From assembly GCA_963716255.1 (NCBI GenBank), contig OY970303.1:128001-192000 (forward strand): a stretch of DNA of 64,000 nt, given 5' to 3'. How positions within the stretch are numbered: position 1 is the stretch's first letter; every line of letters begins with the position of its first letter. The notes under the pieces were generated by a model. It had not been told where the DNA came from and did not search any database. It saw only the letters and a program-made list of their open reading frames with translations. The position numbers and the translations under genes were made by a program. Below, one piece after another: positions 21,937 through 43,846 of this stretch. The stretch is from an uncultured Gemmatimonadales bacterium. Its GTDB lineage: Bacteria > Gemmatimonadota > Gemmatimonadetes > Longimicrobiales > Longimicrobiaceae.

Positions 21937-23337
21937 TCACTCCCGGCGTGCCAGCGGCGGCGGGCGGTGCAGCCATACCTCGTAGATCTTGTCGCTGGCG
22001 AAGGTGGGGTCGAACTCGCTGGACTGGTCGGCCGTGGCGAAGATCCCGCCGTACATCCACCCCACCCGTACGCTGTCACCCGGCGGCAGCTGGCTGTAGT
22101 CGATCACTTCGTGCGTGCCCGCCACCATGGTCCGGGCCTCGTCGGGCACGAAGGCCGCGTTCGCGCCGCGCCGCCCGGGGAGCCCCTGGCCGGCCGGCTG
22201 CACGACCTCCCGGGTTGAGCCGTCGGCGGCGCGCGCCAGCGTGGTGATCGTCCCCGTCCAGGGCAGGGAATTGTTGATCCCGCCGGGGACCAGGGTCCCG
22301 TTCGCATCGTAGTACCAGCCGCTGATTCCGCCCAGCAGAGTGGTGTACATCGTCTCCGTGCCGGGGTCGTACATCACCACGTGCGCACACTCGTACTGGC
22401 TCATCCGCATGCTGAACGCGGTGTCCAACGCGAACACCGGTGTCCCGCCGCCCGGCGGCACCGTCATGTACATGGGGTTCACCCACGCACCCGAGGTGGG
22501 AGTGAACACGCCGCCGTAGATCGCCAGCCCATGGACGCCGCCGGGCTGCACCGTCGTAACCACGTTCAGGTCGCGCCGGTGCCACTGCGAGTTGGGACCG
22601 CTGCCCGACGGGTCGCCATACGCCTGGTAGTCACGGATCTCGGGCGTGTACGGGGCCGGGAGCGTGAACGTGCGCACCTGCTCGGTATAGATGCCCGTGA
22701 CCCCACCCTTGTAGATCGAGTTGTAGTTGTGCCCCATCACAAGGTAGAAGGTGTCGCCAATCTTCTCGAGCGCGCCGCCCGTCACGCGCATCCGTTCGTC
22801 CGCCCGGGTGGAGATGACGCCGCCAATGCCGCCGAACTCCTGCCGCTTCACGAAGTAGACAAGGGAGGGAAGGGTGATGATGGTGAGGTTCGGATACGTC
22901 TGATAGCACGAAGGCTCGTCGTTGTCACAGGTGCTGCCGTAGCCGCCCACGACGTAGAGAAAGCTGCCGTCCTGGACGTACTGGGTGTTGCTCACCCGCA
23001 GGATCGAGCGGAACTGCGCCGGGAGCGGTGCGCTGTAGGTGCGGCCGGCCGCCATGTCCACTACGTAGATGCTGTCGTTCGCGGTGGAGGTGGGGAAGGT
23101 GCTTTCCCGTGTGCTGGTGCGGTGGAAGCCGTTGCGGCGCCCGCCGATCAGCACCCAGTCGTTGCCGCTCCGCCCCAGGGCGAACGACTGCAGCTTGGGG
23201 GTGCCCGGGGGCGCCGTGATCTCGCGCACGGTGAAGGTGAAGGGGAGCGCGGGGTCCGTCTGCGCGGCCGCGGGGAGCGCCGCCGCCGCGGCCAGCACGG
23301 CGGCCGCCAGCGTGCCGCGGAAGAGGTGGGCGCTCAT
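21937..23337 (-). CDS. Secreted Kelch/beta-propeller-like hypothetical protein
   Basis: Signal peptide MSAHLFRGTLAAAVLAAAAALPAAAQ; repeated hhhGG motifs (VLIGG, YVVGG, AIYGG, LLGG, MYGG); ATGA overlap with the upstream gene. Confidence 0.8.
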   Translation of the reverse strand: MSAHLFRGTLAAAVLAAAAALPAAAQTDPALPFTFTVREITAPPGTPKLQSFALGRSGNDWVLIGGRRNGFHRTSTRESTFPTSTANDSIYVVDMAAGRTYSAPLPAQFRSILRVSNTQYVQDGSFLYVVGGYGSTCDNDEPSCYQTYPNLTIITLPSLVYFVKRQEFGGIGGVISTRADERMRVTGGALEKIGDTFYLVMGHNYNSIYKGGVTGIYTEQVRTFTLPAPYTPEIRDYQAYGDPSGSGPNSQWHRRDLNVVTTVQPGGVHGLAIYGGVFTPTSGAWVNPMYMTVPPGGGTPVFALDTAFSMRMSQYECAHVVMYDPGTETMYTTLLGGISGWYYDANGTLVPGGINNSLPWTGTITTLARAADGSTREVVQPAGQGLPGRRGANAAFVPDEARTMVAGTHEVIDYSQLPPGDSVRVGWMYGGIFATADQSSEFDPTFASDKIYEVWLHRPPPLARRE

Positions 23338-25649
23338 CGGAGATCCTCCGGAGAAGACGGGCCTGCCGGCTGCGGCGGCGCGAGGGTGAGCGAGGTGGTG
23401 TCCAGGCCGATCTGGCCGCCGGGGAAGAACTTGCGCGCCCAGGCGTGCAGCAGCTCGCGGCGCGAGGCCGACAGGTCGCGGGTGCGCGGCATGTACTCGG
23501 CCCGGGGCCACCAGCTGAGCTGCGTGCGCTCGTACAGCCGGCGGGCCATTTCCGGATCGTTCCAGTACTCCGGATCATTCAGCGGGATGCGCTGGTTCAT
23601 GGCCGGGTAGAGGAGGTAGTAGTTGCGCAGCACCTCGTTGTACATGGCCTCGAAGGTCAGGTCCGCGTTCCCCACCGGCGGATCGCTGCCGGGCACGTAG
23701 TAGCGGCTATAGTCCACGTTGTTGGGGAGGATGCGCAGGTTGATCATGGGCGCGAACCCCAGCGGCAGGCCACCGTACGCGAGGGGGGGATACAGCCCGT
23801 CGCCGTCGGTCCCCGCGGCCGTGAGGCGGATGCCGCCGAAGCCCGGAGGCGCCGCCTGCCCCTCCACGGTGAAGGTGTAGAGCCGGTTCCCGTTGGCCCC
23901 CGCGTTCACCACCAGGTCCTGCCCGGGACCGAACCCGGAGGCGATCAGGGCGAGCGGGCCGGGGTCCTGGTTGGGGGTGGTGTCGTACTCCCACACCTTC
24001 ACCGGCGGGCAGTCTTCCGCGGCCAGCTCCGCGCCCTTGCGGAACACGCGGATCCGCGAAGGCACCGGGGTCCCGTCGTCGTCGGTGAAGCGGTCGAGCG
24101 TTCCGCCGCCGGGGAGTTGCTCGCCGAAGATGCAGGCCTGGTCGGAGACGACCAGGTACTCCTGCTCCACCAGCAGCTCCGCGTCGCGCGTGACGCCATC
24201 GGCACCCGTCAGCCGGCCCCACAGCGCGAAGGTGCCGGTGTCCAGCAGCGCCTGGGCATCCGCGGAAAGGCCGGAGATGGGAAAGTCGAAGATCCACCCG
24301 GCCAGGTTTCCTGCCCCCGTATCGGTGTAGTTCACCACCCCCACGTCGTGGCGCGTGGCGCCGTCGCCGATGGTGAGGGCGACGGGGCCGAAGGGCCACT
24401 TGACGCAGGTGGTGGTGACCAGCGGGTCGAAGGCGGTGTCGGTCAACTGGTCGGGGAAGGTGCCCGAGAAATCGGCGGAGACCACCCCGGCCACGCGGTT
24501 CACGGTCACCACCGCGGGGCCCAGCTTGTACTGCGGGTCGGCGGGGTTGGCGTTGCCGGTGGCGCCCGGCGCCGGGATGCTTTCCACGGGCACCAGCATC
24601 CGCCCCGCGGGGCACGAGTCCACCTCGTCGCCGTAGGCCGGGGCGATCGTCCCCACCACCTGGATGTAGTCGGGGTTGCGCCCGTTCACCCGCATCAGCT
24701 CCGCCACCTCCGGCAGCGGCATCCCCGGGGTGGGCTGCCCGCCGGGCGCGCTGGGACCGTTCTCGTACAGCTCCTCCATCTTCCCGAACCACGGGCTGTC
24801 CGGGCTCTCCCGGTCGTCGGAGTACTTGAAGGTGTTGATCACCTGCAGCGGCCGGTACAGGTAGTAGTGGAAGACCACGCCGGTGAGCGGCACGCCGCCG
24901 CGCTCGGAGGGAAAGCGCGCGAGCAGCGGGGTGCCGGGCGGCAGCGCCGAGAGAGGGACGATGCTCTGGAACAGGCACCCCGCGCCGTTGGGCCCGCCCA
25001 GGGTGTAGCTGCGCTGGAAGTTGATGAACCGCGTGACCGCCTTGGTGGGAAGGCCGCTCAGCAGCGCCTGGCCGTCCTTCGCCACGGTCAGGAACTGGGT
25101 CATCACCATGCTGGCGGGCACGTCCTCGGCGTTGATGTCCACCAGGACGCCGGTGCTGCGGCCGGTGTCGTCGGGCCGGTTGTTATACGAGACCAGCGCG
25201 CCGATCACCGGGTCCTGCGCCGGGTCGGTGATGGTCTCCCCTGCCCTGGGCACCACGCTCGCCACAGTCACGTCAAGCATGGTCAGTCCCATGTCGCCGT
25301 AGTAGTTCCATTCGCCGGGGATGTACCACACCGCGGCCCCGTCGGTGCGCCGGGCGTCGCCTCCCTCGGCCTTGTTCACCCCGGGAATCCCGGCCTTGAG
25401 CGCCCGCGCGCGGGTCTCGGCTCGGAACTCGCCGCGGCGCCGCGCCCACGCCACCCACTGGTCGTCCGTCATCCCGTAGGTCATCGGCTGCACGTTGGGC
25501 GAGTCGGCCTGGCGCAGCGGGTACATCTCGTAGCCGGGATAGTCCGGCCCCATCACCGCCGAGAAGCTGTAGTCGTCGTTGTTCCCGGTGCCCACGTCCA
25601 CCAGCAGCAGGCCCTGGAAGTGGAACCGGGGGAAGTCGAAGACGCTCAT
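23334..25649 (-). CDS. VioB/RebD/StaD N-terminal-like protein lacking the ferritin-like C-terminal domain
   Basis: Begins MSVFDFPRFHFQG (VioB begins MSILDFPRIHFRG). Ends with VLRNYYLLYPAM...YMPRTRDLS, resembling VioB YMPSTRELS. Confidence 0.7.
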   Translation of the reverse strand: MSVFDFPRFHFQGLLLVDVGTGNNDDYSFSAVMGPDYPGYEMYPLRQADSPNVQPMTYGMTDDQWVAWARRRGEFRAETRARALKAGIPGVNKAEGGDARRTDGAAVWYIPGEWNYYGDMGLTMLDVTVASVVPRAGETITDPAQDPVIGALVSYNNRPDDTGRSTGVLVDINAEDVPASMVMTQFLTVAKDGQALLSGLPTKAVTRFINFQRSYTLGGPNGAGCLFQSIVPLSALPPGTPLLARFPSERGGVPLTGVVFHYYLYRPLQVINTFKYSDDRESPDSPWFGKMEELYENGPSAPGGQPTPGMPLPEVAELMRVNGRNPDYIQVVGTIAPAYGDEVDSCPAGRMLVPVESIPAPGATGNANPADPQYKLGPAVVTVNRVAGVVSADFSGTFPDQLTDTAFDPLVTTTCVKWPFGPVALTIGDGATRHDVGVVNYTDTGAGNLAGWIFDFPISGLSADAQALLDTGTFALWGRLTGADGVTRDAELLVEQEYLVVSDQACIFGEQLPGGGTLDRFTDDDGTPVPSRIRVFRKGAELAAEDCPPVKVWEYDTTPNQDPGPLALIASGFGPGQDLVVNAGANGNRLYTFTVEGQAAPPGFGGIRLTAAGTDGDGLYPPLAYGGLPLGFAPMINLRILPNNVDYSRYYVPGSDPPVGNADLTFEAMYNEVLRNYYLLYPAMNQRIPLNDPEYWNDPEMARRLYERTQLSWWPRAEYMPRTRDLSASRRELLHAWARKFFPGGQIGLDTTSLTLAPPQPAGPSSPEDLR

Positions 25650-30677: not shown

Positions 30678-33164
30678 ATGCCAGCCAAGACAGGTACCCA
30701 GGCCCAGGAGCGGGTGCTTCTCCTCCCGGTGCGCAGCACGGTGGTGTTTCCGCAGGGGGCGACGGCGCTCCAGATCGGCTTCGAGCCCAACGTGGCGGGG
30801 CTGAACGCGCACCCGGCGGCGGACCTGATCGTGGGCATCGTCTCCATCGCGGACGAGACCTCGGCCGCGGACGCGCCGCTGGAGCCCGAGTCCATGCAGA
30901 AGGTCGCCGTGCTGGGGCGCCTCCTGGACCGGCTCAACCTCCCCGGCGGCACCATCCAGACCACGCTTCAGGGGCTGCGGCGGGTGCGCCTGGAGGACGT
31001 GCGGATGGAGGAGGGCGGCTTCTACACGGCGGCGTACCGGCGCGTGGAGGAGGTCCCGGCGGAGGAGGCGGAGGCGGAGCGCCTGATCGAGAAGATCCTG
31101 AGCACCGTGGTGGGGGTGGCGGCCAAGGTGGAGCGCATCCCCAACGAGGTGCCGCGCATCCTGCGCATGAACCTGAGCGACCCCTCGCGCTTCGCGGACC
31201 TGGCGGCCTCGCTCTGCCACTTCAACGTCCCCGACCGCGACGCGGTGCTCCAGCGGCTGGACGTCGCGGACCGCCTGCGCTTCGTGCTGGAGCGGCTGGA
31301 GGACACCTGGGAGCGGGTGCAGACCATCGAGGAGGAGGACCGCCTGGTGGGGAACCAGGCGGCGGAGAACACCTCGCCCAAGAGCCCCGCCGACCGCCGC
31401 TCGCAGATCCGCAAGCGCATCCAGGCGCTCCAGACCGAGCTGGGGGAGATCGACCCGGCGGAGCGCGAGGCGGACGAGATCCTGCGCCGCGTGGAGCGCG
31501 CCGGGGTCCCGGCGCGGGTGGCCGCCGTGGCCCGCCGCGAGACGGAGCGCCTGCGCGCCCCCGGCACCAGCGTCGCCGACGCCACCGAGATCCGCAACTA
31601 CCTGGAGCTGCTCCTCGCCGTCCCCTGGACCGCGACCTCCGGGAACCGCGAGATCGACCTGGACGCGGTGGAGCAGGCCATGACGGACGAGCACCTGGGG
31701 CTGGAGGAGGCCAAGCGGCGGGTGCTGGAGGTGCTGGCGGTGGCGCGGCTGCGCGGCGAGCTGAACGGGCTGATCCCCTGCATCGTGGGCCCGCCGGGGG
31801 TGGGCAAGGCCACGCTCGCGTCGGCGATCGCCCGCGGGCTGGGGCGGCCGCTGGCGCGCCTGGAGCTGGGCGGCCGCGGCGAGGCGCAGCTCATGGGCTC
31901 GCGGCGCACCCGCGCCGGCGCGCAGCCCGGCAAGCTGCTCACCACCATCCGCGACGCGGGGGTGCGCGACCCGGTGTTCCTGCTGGAGGAGGTGGACGAG
32001 CTGGGGCTGGGGAACGTGGAGGGCGACCCGGTGGAGGCCATGGAGGAGTTCCTGGACACCGAGGCGCGCGACGGCTTCACCGACCGCTACCTGGACGTGC
32101 CGCTGGACCTTTCGGACGTGTTCTTCATCGCCACGGCCAACGACTTCTTCCGCATCCCGCGCGACCTGCGCGAGTACTTCATCGAGATCCGCATCGCCGG
32201 CTACACGCCGGAGGACAAGGTGCAGATCGCCCGCAAGCGGCTCTTCCCGCGCATGGCGGAGGAGCACGGCTTCGCCGCGGACGAGGTCGCCATCCCGGAC
32301 GAGGTGCTCCTCTTCCTCACCCGGGGCTACGCGCGCGACGCCGGGCTGGGGAACCTGCGCCGCTCGCTGGCCGCCATCTTCCGCTGGCTGGCGCGCGCCA
32401 AGGCGGAGGGCGAGGGCGAGCAGTGGGAGGTGACGCGGGAGATGATCGAGGAGGTCCTGGGCTATCCGCGCTACACGGCCACGGCGGCGGAGAGCGCGCC
32501 GGAGGTGGGGGTGGTGACGGGGCTGGCGTGGACGGCCTCGGGCGGGGAATTGATGTTCATCGAGGCGCTGAAGATGCCCGGGACGGGCCGCCTGATCATC
32601 ACCGGGCTGCTGGGCGACGTGATGCGCGAGTCGGTGAACGCGGCGTACTCGTACGTCCGCTCCCGCGCGCAGGCCCTGGGGATCGCCACCAGCGCCTTCA
32701 ACGACAACGACATCCACGTCCACTTCCCCCTGGGCGCGACGCCCAAGGACGGTCCCTCCGCGGGCGTGGCGGTGACGCTGGCGATCGCCTCGTCGCTTTC
32801 CGACCGGGCGGTGACGCACGACATCGCCATGACGGGCGAGGTGACGCTGCGCGGCAAGGTCCTGGAGATCGGCGGGGTCAAGGAAAAGACGCTGGCGGCG
32901 TACCGCGCCGGGCTGCGCCAGGTGGTCCTCCCCACCGGCAACCGCCGCGACCTCCGCGACGTGCCGGAGGACGTCAAGGAAGGGATGACCTTCCACTTCG
33001 TGGACCGCATGGACGAGGTGTTCGACCTGTGCCTGCTGGAAAAGGAGGCGCGCGGGGGGCGGCGGCGGGGCGGGATGGGCCGCGGCGGCGTGGGGCCGCA
33101 GGCCACCGCGGACGGGGAGCCGGAGGGCGCGGGCGCGGAGGAGATGGCGGCGGACGGGGACTGA
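30678..33164 (+). CDS. lon: Lon (LonA-type) protease with degenerate AAA+ motifs
   Basis: LON N-domain; GPPGVGKAT; protease PKDGPSAG and GGVKEK (Ser-Lys dyad). Confidence 0.9.
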   Translation: MPAKTGTQAQERVLLLPVRSTVVFPQGATALQIGFEPNVAGLNAHPAADLIVGIVSIADETSAADAPLEPESMQKVAVLGRLLDRLNLPGGTIQTTLQGLRRVRLEDVRMEEGGFYTAAYRRVEEVPAEEAEAERLIEKILSTVVGVAAKVERIPNEVPRILRMNLSDPSRFADLAASLCHFNVPDRDAVLQRLDVADRLRFVLERLEDTWERVQTIEEEDRLVGNQAAENTSPKSPADRRSQIRKRIQALQTELGEIDPAEREADEILRRVERAGVPARVAAVARRETERLRAPGTSVADATEIRNYLELLLAVPWTATSGNREIDLDAVEQAMTDEHLGLEEAKRRVLEVLAVARLRGELNGLIPCIVGPPGVGKATLASAIARGLGRPLARLELGGRGEAQLMGSRRTRAGAQPGKLLTTIRDAGVRDPVFLLEEVDELGLGNVEGDPVEAMEEFLDTEARDGFTDRYLDVPLDLSDVFFIATANDFFRIPRDLREYFIEIRIAGYTPEDKVQIARKRLFPRMAEEHGFAADEVAIPDEVLLFLTRGYARDAGLGNLRRSLAAIFRWLARAKAEGEGEQWEVTREMIEEVLGYPRYTATAAESAPEVGVVTGLAWTASGGELMFIEALKMPGTGRLIITGLLGDVMRESVNAAYSYVRSRAQALGIATSAFNDNDIHVHFPLGATPKDGPSAGVAVTLAIASSLSDRAVTHDIAMTGEVTLRGKVLEIGGVKEKTLAAYRAGLRQVVLPTGNRRDLRDVPEDVKEGMTFHFVDRMDEVFDLCLLEKEARGGRRRGGMGRGGVGPQATADGEPEGAGAEEMAADGD

Positions 33165-33182
33165 AATTGCTGGATGATCGAC

Positions 33183-33216
33183 AGCGGGGGCGGCCGGTGA
33201 TCCGGCCGCCCCCGCT
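33183..33216. terminator. GC-rich hairpin between convergent lon and M23 genes
   Basis: AGCGGGGGCGGCCGG-TGAT-CCGGCCGCCCCCGCT. Confidence 0.7.
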
Positions 33217-33239
33217 TCGTTCGTCGCCGCGAGGCGGGA

Positions 33240-34424
33240 TCAGTGGCTGTTCAGGAATGCGATGGGATCGTGGTACCTCGCCGTGACGTAGCTCTGCGAC
33301 TGCCCGCAGGGGAACGCGTTGGCGGCCATGCTCACCTTGCGGATCTCGAAGTGAAGGTGAGCGTCGAGGCTGCCATCGCCCTTGCCCACCGTCCCGATCT
33401 GCTGCCGGCGGGCTACGTTCGAGCCCGTCCCTACAAGCCGGGTGTCGAGGTGGCCATACTGCGACCAGACCTTGCTCCCGTCCGGCAGCGTGTGCTCCAG
33501 CAGGATGACGTTGCCCCAGGTTCCTCCGTACGTCCCCGATGCGACGACCACCCCGTCCGCCGTCGCGTATACGGGCTGCCCGCGGTCCTGATCACTCGAC
33601 GTCCCGTCCTTGTTCATGTCCACTGCCGGGTGGTACACCAGACCGCAGGTCCCACCGTAATTGTACGGTTGCAGCCACCAGAGCCCGTTCCGGTTGTTGA
33701 GCCAGCCGGCCCCGTCCGCCGCACCGACCGGGTAGTCGAACGCCGCGGTGGACCCGCAGGACGTGGTGGCCGCCTGGAGCGTGGCCTGCGGAAGGTAGGA
33801 GGTGAACTCCGCGTCGGTGACGCTCACCACCTCGGCCGACGACCGGCAGTGCGACGTCAGCACGGCCTCGCTGGAAATCCCGAGCGCTCCGCCGTGGTAG
33901 GTGACCCACCGGACTTCCGGGCCGGTCCCCCGGATCAGCGTCCCCGCCTTGCGGAGCCGGAACGCGCGCGCCGCCGGTCCGTCCGGGAGCGACTTCAGCA
34001 CGGCGTCGGGGACGGTCACCAGCCGGCCCCAGTTCTGGTCCCCGAACAGCGCCTCGTAGGTCGAAGGGTCCGGGATCCCGGACCGGACGCATCCCACCAC
34101 GATGTAGGACGTGGGATCCGCGGAATTGTCGGACTTGAGGGGGGCGTCGCCCCTCAGCCAGGCGTTCGCGTTGACCGACGGGAGGACCCGGCGCTCCCCG
34201 GCCGGCAGCGATGCGACCTGGCGCACGACGCTGCGGCGGGACCCGGTGCATGCGTCGAGGGTGGCCTGGTCCGGGTACTCGTACAGCCGGCCGCCGTAGA
34301 CGAGGAACACGGCGGGCTGGCCCTGGACCTGGATGTGCTCTCCGTCGGCCTGGGCCGCAGCCGCTCCCGACGCGGCGCAGACCGCGGTCAGAACGCCCAG
34401 CAGAGTAGATGAGATCCTTCTCAT
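33240..34424 (-). CDS. Secreted M23 family peptidase with N-terminal repeat domain
   Basis: Signal peptide; HPAVD (HxxxD), YGHL and HLHFEIR motifs. Confidence 0.9.
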   Translation of the reverse strand: MRRISSTLLGVLTAVCAASGAAAAQADGEHIQVQGQPAVFLVYGGRLYEYPDQATLDACTGSRRSVVRQVASLPAGERRVLPSVNANAWLRGDAPLKSDNSADPTSYIVVGCVRSGIPDPSTYEALFGDQNWGRLVTVPDAVLKSLPDGPAARAFRLRKAGTLIRGTGPEVRWVTYHGGALGISSEAVLTSHCRSSAEVVSVTDAEFTSYLPQATLQAATTSCGSTAAFDYPVGAADGAGWLNNRNGLWWLQPYNYGGTCGLVYHPAVDMNKDGTSSDQDRGQPVYATADGVVVASGTYGGTWGNVILLEHTLPDGSKVWSQYGHLDTRLVGTGSNVARRQQIGTVGKGDGSLDAHLHFEIRKVSMAANAFPCGQSQSYVTARYHDPIAFLNSH

Positions 34425-34700
34425 GACTTCCTTCCTGGTTGAATGCCGTTGAAGCGGGGTTCGACTCCCGACAAGCCGCTCTCCCGGGGGATGCCTCCTG
34501 GTTCTGGAACCGGAGGCCGGCCGATCCGGGCCTGATTCTCATCCTGTCATGGGTTCCTCCCGTGGCGATGGTGCGCAGGGCACCGGTTTGCGTGCCGACG
34601 GGAGAAGCATAATTTTTGACTCGCACGGATCTCGCACACATTCCGCACTTCGCTCGCACCTTCACCGCACCCCATAAAGCCCCCGGGTTTTCACGCGCCG

Positions 34701-36362
34701 ATGGCCCGCCCGACGCCCGCTCCACGGCTCTTTCTGCGAACTCTAGGCGCACCTGCGCTCCTCGCCGATGCCTCCGAGTCCACGCTGCGGCGCAAGGATC
34801 TCGCACTCCTCGTCTACCTGCGCGTCGAGTCCGCGAGCCCGCACTCCCGCAGCACCCTCGCGTCACTGCTGTGGGCGGAGAACACCGAGCGCGAGGCCAG
34901 GCACTCACTTTCGCAGACGCTGGGGCGGCTGCGGGGAATCGTGGGGAACGACGCTTTCGCGACGTCGCGGGAGCTCGTCGGCTGGGCGGGCAGGCTGTCG
35001 TGCGACGCGGTACGCCTGGAGGAGATCGCGGGGAGCGAGTCCGTGGGCGACGAGATGCTCCGCCTTTACGGGGGCGACTTCATGGCGGGGTTCAGCCCCG
35101 GGACCGGTGGGGGCGACTTCGAGCGGTGGCTGGAGCAGCGCAGGACGGGATGCCGGGACGTGGCCGTACGGCTGCTCGAGCGCTGCGGCGAGGAAGCCGA
35201 GGAGAAGGAGGAGTGGGACGCCGCCCTGCGGCTGGGTGGGCGGCTGGTGGAGATCGACCCGTTCCGGGAGTCGGGGCACCGGCGCATCATGCGCGCCCTG
35301 CACCGAACCGGCGAGCGGGCGCGCGCGCTTCTACACCTGGAGGCGTACGAGAAGCTGCTGGCGGACGAGATCGGGCTGCACCCTCATGGGGACACGCAGC
35401 GGCTCGCACAGGAGATCCGCGAGTCGGCCGCCGCGGACGATCCCGCCCGGGAGCCGCCCTCCAGGAACCTCCCGGTCCCGCCGCTCCTCCCCGAGCCCAC
35501 GCCGCCCGCGCCGCCATCCGCGCCCGACCCGCCGGCCTCGCGTCCGGAGCGATCTCCGCCCGTGATCCCCCTCTCCGAGCCGCCGTCGCTTCCTGCCGAC
35601 GCTCCGGAGTCCGCCCGGCCACACCCACGCCGCCGCCGAGCGCCCACTGTCCTGCTGGGAGCGGCCGCGATCGCCGGGCTGATCGCGCTGGCCTGGTGGC
35701 GCAATTCGGGAACACCGGACGACGGCTTCGAGCTCCCGGCGGTGTTGCCGGAGCCGCACAACGGCGAGAGCATCCGGCCACGAGGGGAGGACAGGACGTT
35801 CCTGGTCTTCGGCCGCACGCTCTACGAGTACCCGGACCGGCCGACCCGGGAGGCGTGCACGGGCTCCGGTCCGGGCGTGGTGCGGGACGTCGACGGAGTC
35901 CCGGGGTGGCCCCACGCACGCCTTCCCTCCATCAGGGAGTATCCGTGGCTCAGCGGACGCGTGCCCCTGGTCTCCGACAACCGGGCGGACATCACCGCGC
36001 ACGTGCTCGTGGGGTGCGTACTCGCGGCGATCCCCAGCCGTGAGGTGTTCACCCGGATCTTCGGAGACGCGGGATGGGAGCGGATGGAGATGGTCTCCGA
36101 CTCGGTGCTGAGGTCCCTCCCCAGGATGACGGTGCTGGCGGCGTATCCCCGTCGCCCCGCGGGGACCCTCATCCGCGGCAGCGGGGGCAAGCTGAAGTGG
36201 GTCGTCTTCTACGAGGGCGCGCTGAGCGTGAGCGGCCCGCGGGTGCTCGAGTCCCACTGCCGGTCGGCGGCCCAGGCGATCCGCGTATCGGACGCGGAGT
36301 TCAGCGCGTACCGGGTCCAGGCGCCGCTGCACCGGGCCGCGTCCGCCTGTGCCCCACGCTGA
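34701..36362 (+). CDS. Membrane-anchored SARP/BTAD transcriptional regulator with extracellular domain
   Basis: LRTLG...LALLVYL...LASLLW winged HTH; BTAD motif DPFRESGHRRIMRAL; Pro-rich linker; TM VLLGAAAIAGLIALAWW; about 200-aa outer domain. Confidence 0.88.
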   Translation: MARPTPAPRLFLRTLGAPALLADASESTLRRKDLALLVYLRVESASPHSRSTLASLLWAENTEREARHSLSQTLGRLRGIVGNDAFATSRELVGWAGRLSCDAVRLEEIAGSESVGDEMLRLYGGDFMAGFSPGTGGGDFERWLEQRRTGCRDVAVRLLERCGEEAEEKEEWDAALRLGGRLVEIDPFRESGHRRIMRALHRTGERARALLHLEAYEKLLADEIGLHPHGDTQRLAQEIRESAAADDPAREPPSRNLPVPPLLPEPTPPAPPSAPDPPASRPERSPPVIPLSEPPSLPADAPESARPHPRRRRAPTVLLGAAAIAGLIALAWWRNSGTPDDGFELPAVLPEPHNGESIRPRGEDRTFLVFGRTLYEYPDRPTREACTGSGPGVVRDVDGVPGWPHARLPSIREYPWLSGRVPLVSDNRADITAHVLVGCVLAAIPSREVFTRIFGDAGWERMEMVSDSVLRSLPRMTVLAAYPRRPAGTLIRGSGGKLKWVVFYEGALSVSGPRVLESHCRSAAQAIRVSDAEFSAYRVQAPLHRAASACAPR

Positions 36363-36463
36363 GCAGGGCGGTGCAAGCGGAGCACGCCGGGCGAACCGGT
36401 TCCCCGGGGCGGGGTACGGGAGGCGGAGATTCTCCTCGCCCGCGCCCATTTGGGCGGCACGGC

Positions 36464-36491
36464 TTGACTTGCGGCCGGGGTCGTTTAGTTT
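36464..36491 (+). promoter_or_regulatory. Putative sigma70 promoter of rpsU
   Basis: TTGACT-N16-TAGTTT in an AT-richer patch upstream of rpsU. Confidence 0.45.
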
Positions 36492-36578
36492 TAAGGGCTG
36501 GAGATTTCCGCACGCGCTCGCCGCGGAGGACCTGTACGCGAACGGCAGGTCTCCTCTTTTATTTACTCTACGAAAGGG

Positions 36579-36797: not shown

Positions 36798-36878
36798 GGC
36801 AAGCCGCGGAAACGAAGAGGCCCGGGCCAATGGCTCGGGCCGTTTCGTGCTGCAGGGCTGAACGGTTTTGTAAATGCG

Positions 36879-37012
36879 GGTTCGGGCGTGCCCCCGGCTG
36901 GCGCCGGGGTCGAGCTTCGGCTCCGTAGGGCTGCAAACAACGCAGCCCAACGGAGTCGAGCCCCCGCAGACTGCGCGGGGTCTCGCCCCTTCGGGCCGAA
37001 ATCCCTCACGCG
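36879..37012 (+). repeat. ~135-bp structured repeat, copy 5
   Basis: Variable stem GGGCTGC-AAACAAC-GCAGCCC. Confidence 0.95.
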
Positions 37013-42679: not shown

Positions 42680-43846
42680 ATGGAGACCAGCGTGCTCGCC
42701 GGCGTCCCCGTGGAGGTGACCGACCCCGTCAACTCCCGGATCCTGGAGGTGTCCGAGGACCGGGTCCAGGGCTTCGTCGCGGAGCCCTTCGCGGAGATCG
42801 CCCGCCTGTCCGGCGTGGAGCTCGCCACGGTGCTGGAGCGGATCCGCGCCATGCTCGCCGCGGGGACCATCCGCCGCGTCCGCCAGACGCTGCTCGCCAC
42901 CAACCTGGCGCCCGGCGCGCTGGTGGCGTGGCAGGTGCCGCAGGAGCGGCTGGACGACGCCTTCACCTACATGTTCCGCGAGGACCCCTTCTCCGGGCAC
43001 GTGGTGATCCGCTCCACCGACGCGGAGACGCGCGGCAGCAAGTACCGCCTGTGGACCACCGTCAAGGTGCCGCAGGGCTTCTCGCTGGCGCGGCACTGCG
43101 AGGTGCTCGGGGCCAGGGTGGGGGCGGAATCGTTCAAGCTGCTCCCGGCGAAGGCGCTCTTCACGCTGGGCGTGGGGCACGTGCGCCGCCGCGGCATGGA
43201 GCCGGGGAGCCGCACCGACGCCCCCGGCGACGTGGTGGACACGCGCATCGTGGAGCTGGACGACCTCGAGTGGCAGGTGCTGGTGCCGCTGAAGCGCGAG
43301 TTCCGGGTGGAGGAGATCCACGAGAACCCCTGGGCGGCGCGGGCGGCGGAGGCCGGCGTGCCGCTGGACGAGTTCCTGCGCGTGGCGCGCTCCCTGAACG
43401 AGCGCGGCGTCATCGGCCGCTTCTCCACCTTCCTGGAGCACGTGAAGCCCTCCGCCACCGGGCACCGGGTGACGCGCTACAACGCGCTCTTCCACTGGCG
43501 CGTGCCGGCCGGGCGCGAGATGGAGGCGGGGATGGAGGTGGCGCGGCACCACGTGATGACGCACGCCTACTGGCGCGAGGGCGGGCCGGAGTTCGCCGGG
43601 GTCAACATCATGGGCGTGGCGCACGGCACCGAGAAGGAGATGGTGCTCGCCCACAAGGAGGCCATCGACCGGCACCTGGAAGAGGCGGGGATCCCGGTGG
43701 ACTACACCAACGTCTTCTGGGGCGGGCGCAGCGAGATCAAGCCGTCCGAGATCGCGCCCTCCGAATACCTGAAGTGGTGTGAGCGGGTGGAGGTGGACCC
43801 GGAGTCCATGCGGGTGCGTGCCGACGAGACGATCGCGAGTGCGTGA
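42680..43846 (+). CDS. Lrp/AsnC-fold fusion, siroheme decarboxylase AhbA/AhbB (NirDL)-like
   Basis: Two HTH+ferredoxin-like units: EPFAEIARLSG...GTIRR...LVAWQVP and NPWAARAAEAG...GVIGRF...THAYWR. Confidence 0.75.
   Translation: METSVLAGVPVEVTDPVNSRILEVSEDRVQGFVAEPFAEIARLSGVELATVLERIRAMLAAGTIRRVRQTLLATNLAPGALVAWQVPQERLDDAFTYMFREDPFSGHVVIRSTDAETRGSKYRLWTTVKVPQGFSLARHCEVLGARVGAESFKLLPAKALFTLGVGHVRRRGMEPGSRTDAPGDVVDTRIVELDDLEWQVLVPLKREFRVEEIHENPWAARAAEAGVPLDEFLRVARSLNERGVIGRFSTFLEHVKPSATGHRVTRYNALFHWRVPAGREMEAGMEVARHHVMTHAYWREGGPEFAGVNIMGVAHGTEKEMVLAHKEAIDRHLEEAGIPVDYTNVFWGGRSEIKPSEIAPSEYLKWCERVEVDPESMRVRADETIASA

Follow-up and report, generated by a model that had tools for sequence, protein, structure and literature searches.

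A two-gene cassette between lon and rpsU pairs a predicted single-pass membrane activator of the SARP type with a divergent M23 peptidase, and the two proteins carry the same domain (Table 1). In our reading, the activator switches on the neighbouring peptidase and the common domain binds wall material, with a class of ligand shared between sensor and enzyme; taken as a whole, we give this account about an even chance of being right. Positions are those of the window, the whole stretch of 64,000 nucleotides that was analysed. No sigma gene lies inside the cassette. A GC-rich hairpin between the convergent ends of lon and the peptidase gene, which was not reported by a terminator scan that requires a T run, is likely a terminator common to both.

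Table 1 Features of the lon/rpsU interval in the window.
Feature	Position	Strand	Basis
Accessory cassette, about 3.27 kb, lon/rpsU interval	33163..36427	.	Empty-site contigs in metagenome runs
GC-rich hairpin between convergent lon and peptidase ends	33184..33215	.	Read in sequence
Predicted secreted M23 peptidase, 394 aa (signal peptide, three-repeat domain, M23)	33240..34424	-	
M23 catalytic region, HPAVD (265-269) and HLH (356-358)	33324..33632	-	Pfam and motifs
Shared three-repeat domain of peptidase, aa 27-223, EccB/PlyCB-like repeat fold predicted	33756..34346	-	
Signal peptide of peptidase, cleaved type by eye, without canonical lipobox	34353..34424	-	Sequence
Predicted -10 element TATGCT of peptidase promoter, 10 nt past last GTGCG core	34606..34611	-	
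Predicted SARP operator, five GTGCG/CGCAC cores, 11-bp period	34622..34670	-	
Predicted single-pass transmembrane SARP-type activator, 553 aa	34701..36362	+	
Putative wHTH plus BTAD (SARP domain)	34722..35429	+	
Predicted transmembrane helix, aa 314-333, after Pro-rich linker	35640..35699	+	Hydropathy
Shared three-repeat domain of regulator, aa 354-550, predicted extracytoplasmic sensor	35760..36350	+	

The domains of peptidase and regulator align without gaps, with 92 of 197 positions identical (47%; BLASTP E 7e-57). This bears out the end-to-end alignment of about 200 aa claimed in the sequence-only reading, whose quoted segments all fall within it, and the four cysteines described there as conserved all pair up in register (peptidase/regulator C59/C386, C112/C439, C193/C520 and C223/C550). 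These are the only two copies of the domain that tblastn found in the 8.4-Mb genome, and no Pfam or NCBIfam family matched it.

An AlphaFold model of the domain, built from a 15-row alignment, has a pLDDT of 94.7 and contains three similar strand-helix units. Aligning the repeats by sequence gives a borderline result (21-39 of 500 shuffles), and it is the model that supports a division into three. The best 11 Foldseek rows were all EccB, with a best E value of 5.6e-4 and low TM-scores. Using VIA-align, the second unit matched the EccB1 repeat with a Z of 6.8 (rmsd 2.2, 58 aligned), followed by LysIME-EF1 (4.6), a Streptococcus mutans domain (4.1), PlyCB (3.9), a MACPF protein (3.6) and the Lys170 CBD (3.2); these values are middling, all being under 8, though that of EccB1 is well above unrelated rows. 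The structural check proposed earlier from the letters of the DNA therefore predicts an EccB/PlyCB-like fold of the wall-binding type, but with middling scores. PF05108 matched neither window protein at E values up to 1 and gave weak matches in 19 of 128 domain relatives. EccB repeats, whose likeness to PlyCB has been reported and whose wall binding is without experimental support (PMC4769845), resemble the domain in predicted repeat fold and frequent fusion to wall hydrolases, as do PlyCB and the CBDs of LysIME-EF1 and Lys170 (PMC4769845, PMC7098653). Here, by contrast, three repeats form one Cys-containing domain with no EccB core and no Pfam match, and the domain is used in a transcription factor.

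Searching 1.84 billion representatives returned 132 matches to the domain, 42 of them with the full domain (Pfam families come from a scan of 128 of the 132 and, for the rest, from an earlier search). The full-domain relatives comprise 14 BTAD, 10 M23, 2 CHAP, 3 Amidase_6 and 1 weak NAGPA protein, plus 12 without a family, several of which look like regulator fragments by eye. The architecture survey suggested in the sequence-only reading thus recovers both BTAD regulators (14/42) and M23, CHAP or amidase proteins (15/42), and the latter make up 15 of the 16 full-domain relatives with a catalytic Pfam match. Repeat-level relatives add Amidase_2, SpoIID, NlpC/P60 and glucosaminidase; the repeat also occurs on cytolysin, Cyt-toxin, RHS and patatin proteins, so its ligand need not be peptidoglycan. 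From these associations we infer a surface-targeting module that is used mostly by wall hydrolases and, from these partners and the predicted fold together, we lean slightly towards the outer domain of the regulator binding wall material. Of 400 other genomes drawn from across the phylum, with at most seven candidates scored per genome, none yielded the domain; a separate search for longer fused forms came up empty, a null result of little weight; and a viral fold search and the ESM Atlas yielded unnamed proteins only.

The BTAD domain of the regulator (PF03704) is matched at aa 117-240 with 72 bits (cut-off 22.1), and family scoring returned SARP/BTAD families only. The wHTH (Trans_reg_C, PF00486) has an E value of 0.013, under its cut-off; it reaches up to E 7e-6 in homologues, about at the cut-off, and the AfsR model covers aa 35-259 at E 8.7e-5. 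The regulator has one hydrophobic helix (mean Kyte-Doolittle 1.95), its homologues have a hydrophobic stretch at the same place, and the sensor domain lies about 20 residues away. This helix is predicted to separate the DNA-binding head from the outer domain; a single-sequence model of the whole regulator (pLDDT 41) was unusable. The M23 match of the peptidase (aa 273-367) scores 74.3 bits (cut-off 28.7) and its zinc motifs are intact, HPAVD corresponding to HxxxD and HLH to HxH. The enzyme is predicted to be secreted and to cut the cell wall.

CGCAC recurs in the 276-nt intergenic region at 34622, 34633, 34644, 34655 and 34666. Chains of at least three CGCAC cores with an 11-bp period occur nowhere else in the whole genome, nor does a five-fold 11-bp-periodic 5-mer of any sequence, and chains longer than two arose in 0 of 2,000 dinucleotide shuffles of the intergenic region. 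Among related loci, which are kin so that the counts overstate independence, YAnnnT stands 10 nt past the last core on the strand of the divergent gene in 15 of 24, window included, and in 0 of 24 at any of the 13 remaining offsets between 4 and 17, and at least three in-phase cores precede 23 of 26 other related regulators. The first set is 32 non-redundant loci minus four with short upstream DNA and four without a chain; the second required at least 700 nt upstream, which excluded four regulators. Direct repeats of SARP promoters are 11 or 22 bp apart and end 8 bp from the -10 (PMC10936776), a rule that the peptidase promoter fits at the sequence level if one counts the core and 2 nt together as a heptamer. 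A sigma-70 consensus scan found no promoter. The repeats and the -10-like hexamer lie on the divergent strand and the promoter therefore faces the peptidase. Control of the peptidase by the regulator, as first proposed from sequence, is well supported at that level by this conserved promoter of SARP geometry, and the regulator very probably drives it, presumably as an activator. A relaxed promoter pattern has one match in the genome, at this locus, which speaks against a wider regulon in this genome.

Elsewhere in the family, the regulator keeps different company. Of 70 other family genomes, 19 encode the domain, for the most part in a regulator that occupies the same position after lon; named Longimicrobium records likewise have a domain-bearing regulator there. 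Wherever another locus with a domain-bearing regulator had enough DNA (13 of 13), the divergent gene encodes a lipopeptide of 57-74 aa ending in G-x-x-GSGT/S, and no enzyme, which rules out the pair as a family-wide design. Of 13 related regulators that lack the full domain, 10 also keep the lipopeptide; the sensor domain thus needs no matched enzyme. Most lipopeptides listed start 293-330 nt from the reference point, and the peptidase starts at 307 nt. The window cassette holds no GSGT lipopeptide, and the sole lipopeptide gene of the genome (C1:4497204) is far from the cassette and has no operator. Conversely, the operator is missing upstream of all ten enzyme-form loci found elsewhere, the flanking DNA examined contains no related BTAD gene, and each of the ten has a lipobox by eye. 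Among family genomes with a domain-bearing regulator, only three others also show the enzyme form; G067, G068 and G079 hold both forms on different contigs, with enzymes that lack an operator. G085 was considered as a second pair, as its first BTAD groups with that of the window (96/94), but it has no peptidase, and its regulator ends after the membrane helix. The older and more general unit is probably that of regulator and promoter, with the matched enzyme confined to one sub-lineage. The literature searched contains no description of a membrane SARP with a CGCAC operator and GSGT lipopeptide at lon, nor of the cassette.

The cassette is an accessory, optional two-gene unit. It was not found after lon in any of the six assessable same-genus genomes (eight in all; in G002 the contig ends there, and G007 is 61% complete with lon not found). 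Eight metagenome runs were examined; the pair was found in two and the empty site in four. In run X1, one contig spans lon to the peptidase (77 differences in 840) and a second runs from the start of the peptidase gene across the promoter into the start of the regulator gene (45 in 794). In run X9, a single 2,472-nt contig holds the 3' part of the peptidase (114 differences in 681) and the promoter with the regulator (125 in 909), separated by a more diverged stretch. Contigs from X3, X4, X5 and X8 join 33162 to 36428-36464, and for X2 and X7 neither the pair nor the empty site was among the matches listed. A first metagenome scan with a single sequence found nothing, and no RNA holder was among the matches listed. 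Two further proteins, P0001 (domain 71% identical) and P0146 (88%), come with the same contig count and the same longest contig (8206) and are taken as a second protein pair, their adjacency not being seen directly; 20 more proteins matched by assembly figures gave no further candidate pair. Conservation of the pair, on which the sequence-only reading had staked its case, thus extends to two diverged relatives (X1 and X9), within a sub-lineage, but not to the family.

In a 47-row tree of the domain, the 28 regulator domains lie on one side of a branch (100/98), which rules out a recent local duplication; the window regulator branches first among regulators (96/83), and the window peptidase with P0001 is sister to the regulators (87/83). 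Two trees agree in placing the lineage of the peptidase as sister to the main clade of regulators (87/83 and 94/86, unstarred). In a 58-row tree, made from the 47-row set by removing 18 near-redundant rows and adding 29, a further three regulator rows group with the enzymes; an AU test of 36 rows nevertheless does not reject one clade of regulators (p 0.065), and all roots are midpoint only. Regulators lost the domain repeatedly: a BTAD tree forces seven changes of domain presence, and L052 and L058 contain domain remnants. Identity of the peptidase domain is 46.2% to its own regulator and 40.7-47.5% to other regulators. Cross identities (window peptidase to its own regulator 92/197 and to P0146 99/197; P0001 to P0146 88/197 and to the window regulator 85/197) show no partner preference and rule out pair-specific co-evolution. 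Between the two protein pairs, 139 of 195 positions are identical in the enzyme domain, 145 of 167 in M23 and 176 of 197 in the sensor; the domain of the enzyme drifts faster than that of the sensor, and window-type sensor domains are as conserved as their BTAD. The two domains thus look like old paralogues without partner-specific co-variation. A more speculative history, which we think unlikely, is that the sensor of membrane SARPs was acquired, perhaps repeatedly, from wall hydrolases, where it had served as targeting module, and that soil bacteria thereby gained a one-protein detector of the walls of other bacteria that fires a matched lysin. The cassette would then preserve the founding pair, given the sister position of its peptidase and the early branching of its regulator.

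In the mechanism that we favour, the outer domain would bind a wall polymer or fragment in the periplasm, as its fold and domain partners suggest. SARPs are monomeric in solution and dimerise on DNA (PMC10936776), and the heads of the regulator would accordingly cluster side by side on the repeats and, by analogy with SARP biology, recruit RNA polymerase; ligand binding may be what brings the clustering about. The induced enzyme would dock on and cut wall of the sensed kind, and that wall is more likely foreign than own because the cassette is accessory and the enzyme is lysin-like in build. Gemmatimonadota have an outer membrane. In such a diderm envelope the sensor would be periplasmic and meet fragments or the cell's own wall, not intact prey, so predation, one of the roles first suggested for the pair, is not established.

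The outer membrane also fits a reading in which the regulator monitors its own periplasmic wall or envelope and drives any gene in the divergent slot, the peptidase remodels the cell's own wall, and the shared domain reflects ancestry and not a matched foreign target. That slot is exchangeable, as the lipopeptide at 13 of 13 other domain-bearing loci shows, and the sensor sits close to the membrane helix; judged by eye, the homologous enzymes are lipoproteins, as would suit a role at the envelope of the cell itself. We nevertheless consider this explanation improbable, if a serious competitor, given that most close relatives do without the cassette and that the nearest characterized folds are phage lysin targeting domains.

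Alternatively, the sensor could bind the same domain on an enzyme, either the cell's own (feedback) or that of a rival (danger signal). Relatives in fold do oligomerise, PlyCB forming an octamer ring (PMC4769845) and the LysIME-EF1 CBD a tetramer that is required for activity (PMC7098653), but homotypic contact is made distinctly unlikely by the lack of partner-specific co-variation and by the scarcity of the enzyme form in family genomes with a domain-bearing regulator. About as unlikely is that the GSGT lipopeptide is the true signal of the regulator family, in a feedback or autoinduction loop with a dispensable accessory repeat domain: lipopeptide and operator do persist where the domain is lost or a remnant, and presence of the domain changes often on the BTAD tree, but the window cassette has no lipopeptide, the single one in the genome is remote and operator-free, and the sensor domain is as conserved as the BTAD.

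Sensing through a domain related to that of an enzyme has precedents. The polysaccharide-binding modules of SigI/RsgI systems also occur on the enzymes themselves, and in BlaR1/BlaZ and PASTA-domain kinases the sensor is kin to a domain of an enzyme that acts on the wall or on beta-lactams; folds and signalling differ in the latter two (protease or kinase), whereas here the sensor itself would be the activator. In Clostridium thermocellum, an outer polysaccharide-binding module of RsgI similarly controls genes for enzymes that degrade the polymer, but through an anti-sigma/sigma pair with an unrelated module and large regulons (PMC6852018), in place of a one-component activator with one adjacent gene. 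ToxR/CadC-type transmembrane one-component regulators likewise use a single polypeptide in which one helix links the head that binds DNA to a predicted extracytoplasmic sensor (PMC10269533); the window regulator differs in its BTAD activation domain, and the words BTAD and SARP are absent from the main text of that survey, whose supplements may list such proteins. The SARP activators AfsR and EmbR have the wHTH plus BTAD head that is predicted here and share the 11-bp-spaced direct repeats abutting the -10 of the adjacent gene (PMC10936776), but in the window regulator a membrane helix and an outer domain replace NOD/TPR or FHA, the repeats number five, the host is of Gemmatimonadota type and the probable target is a wall hydrolase. 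By analogy, the cassette would resemble SARPs in promoter geometry, ToxR/CadC in topology and RsgI in logic; new at this locus are a sensor domain related to that of the matching enzyme next to it, and the genome-unique operator. If the favoured reading is true, the cassette would be a minimal circuit of one sensor-activator, one genome-unique promoter and one enzyme, with which members of a poorly studied soil lineage perceive cell walls and attack them. It would open a way to the ligand of EccB/PlyCB-like repeats, whose binding is unproven in the case of EccB, and would represent a receptor built by copying the targeting domain of an enzyme.

A lipopeptide of 57-74 aa is conserved at about 20 related loci besides two homologous loci, L008 and L009, and is encoded under the same CGCAC-core operator as the window's peptidase-regulator cassette. 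Each copy is built of a lipobox, a Pro-rich middle and a G-x-x-GSGT/S end, and neither of the two lipopeptides tested matched an NCBIfam family above cut-off. We regard the GSGT lipopeptide as a candidate signalling peptide. By pattern search, the window's own genome carries a single copy, outside the window, with a divergent AraC-like and an adjoining TPR-like open reading frame (ORF; labels by eye), and the CGCAC operator was not found there.

The position following lon is a hot spot for insertions. It holds a small, Cys-rich, secreted-looking ORF in genome G008 and another secreted-looking ORF in genome G005. In several same-genus genomes rpsU is found there; it was not seen at the other family loci, using a query that was weak and off-frame. 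In G069, a lipoprotein of 877 aa is encoded between lon and the regulator, on the downstream side of the lipopeptide gene with respect to the regulated direction; by eye, it has parts that resemble Ig domains and a lipase.

Elsewhere in the window, a REP-like repeat had very high depth in each of the four metagenome runs compared, and repeats of similar kind occur at further places in the window. A 771-aa protein, weakly VioB-like (TIGR04492, E 5.8e-6, far below cut-off), is encoded divergently from a TonB-receptor-like ORF (by eye), and a fused AhbA/AhbB-like siroheme decarboxylase scored below cut-offs.

Coordinates of the features discussed
Feature	Location	Strand	Remark
Lipopeptide gene	L008:3514-3720	-	same CGCAC operator
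Lipopeptide gene	L009:4386-4610	-	same CGCAC operator
Lipopeptide gene, window's genome (G000)	C1:4497204	-	
Two related regulators, two near-identical lipopeptide genes	L077:3200-8500 (G085)		after lon
Lipoprotein, 877 aa	L070 (G069)		
Site after lon	window 33165-36578; L089:2830-3600; L091:3000-4340		
REP-like repeat	window 36876-37012		
771-aa protein	window 23334-25649	-	
AhbA/AhbB-like fusion	window 42680-43846	+	

Among the related regulators, one of the G085 pair stops after its membrane helix and the other before it. At loci L060 and L061, where no CGCAC chain was found, the paralogous membrane SARPs carry different domains on the outer side, and in one of them two Ig-like repeats can be recognised by eye; the outer domain is thus exchangeable.
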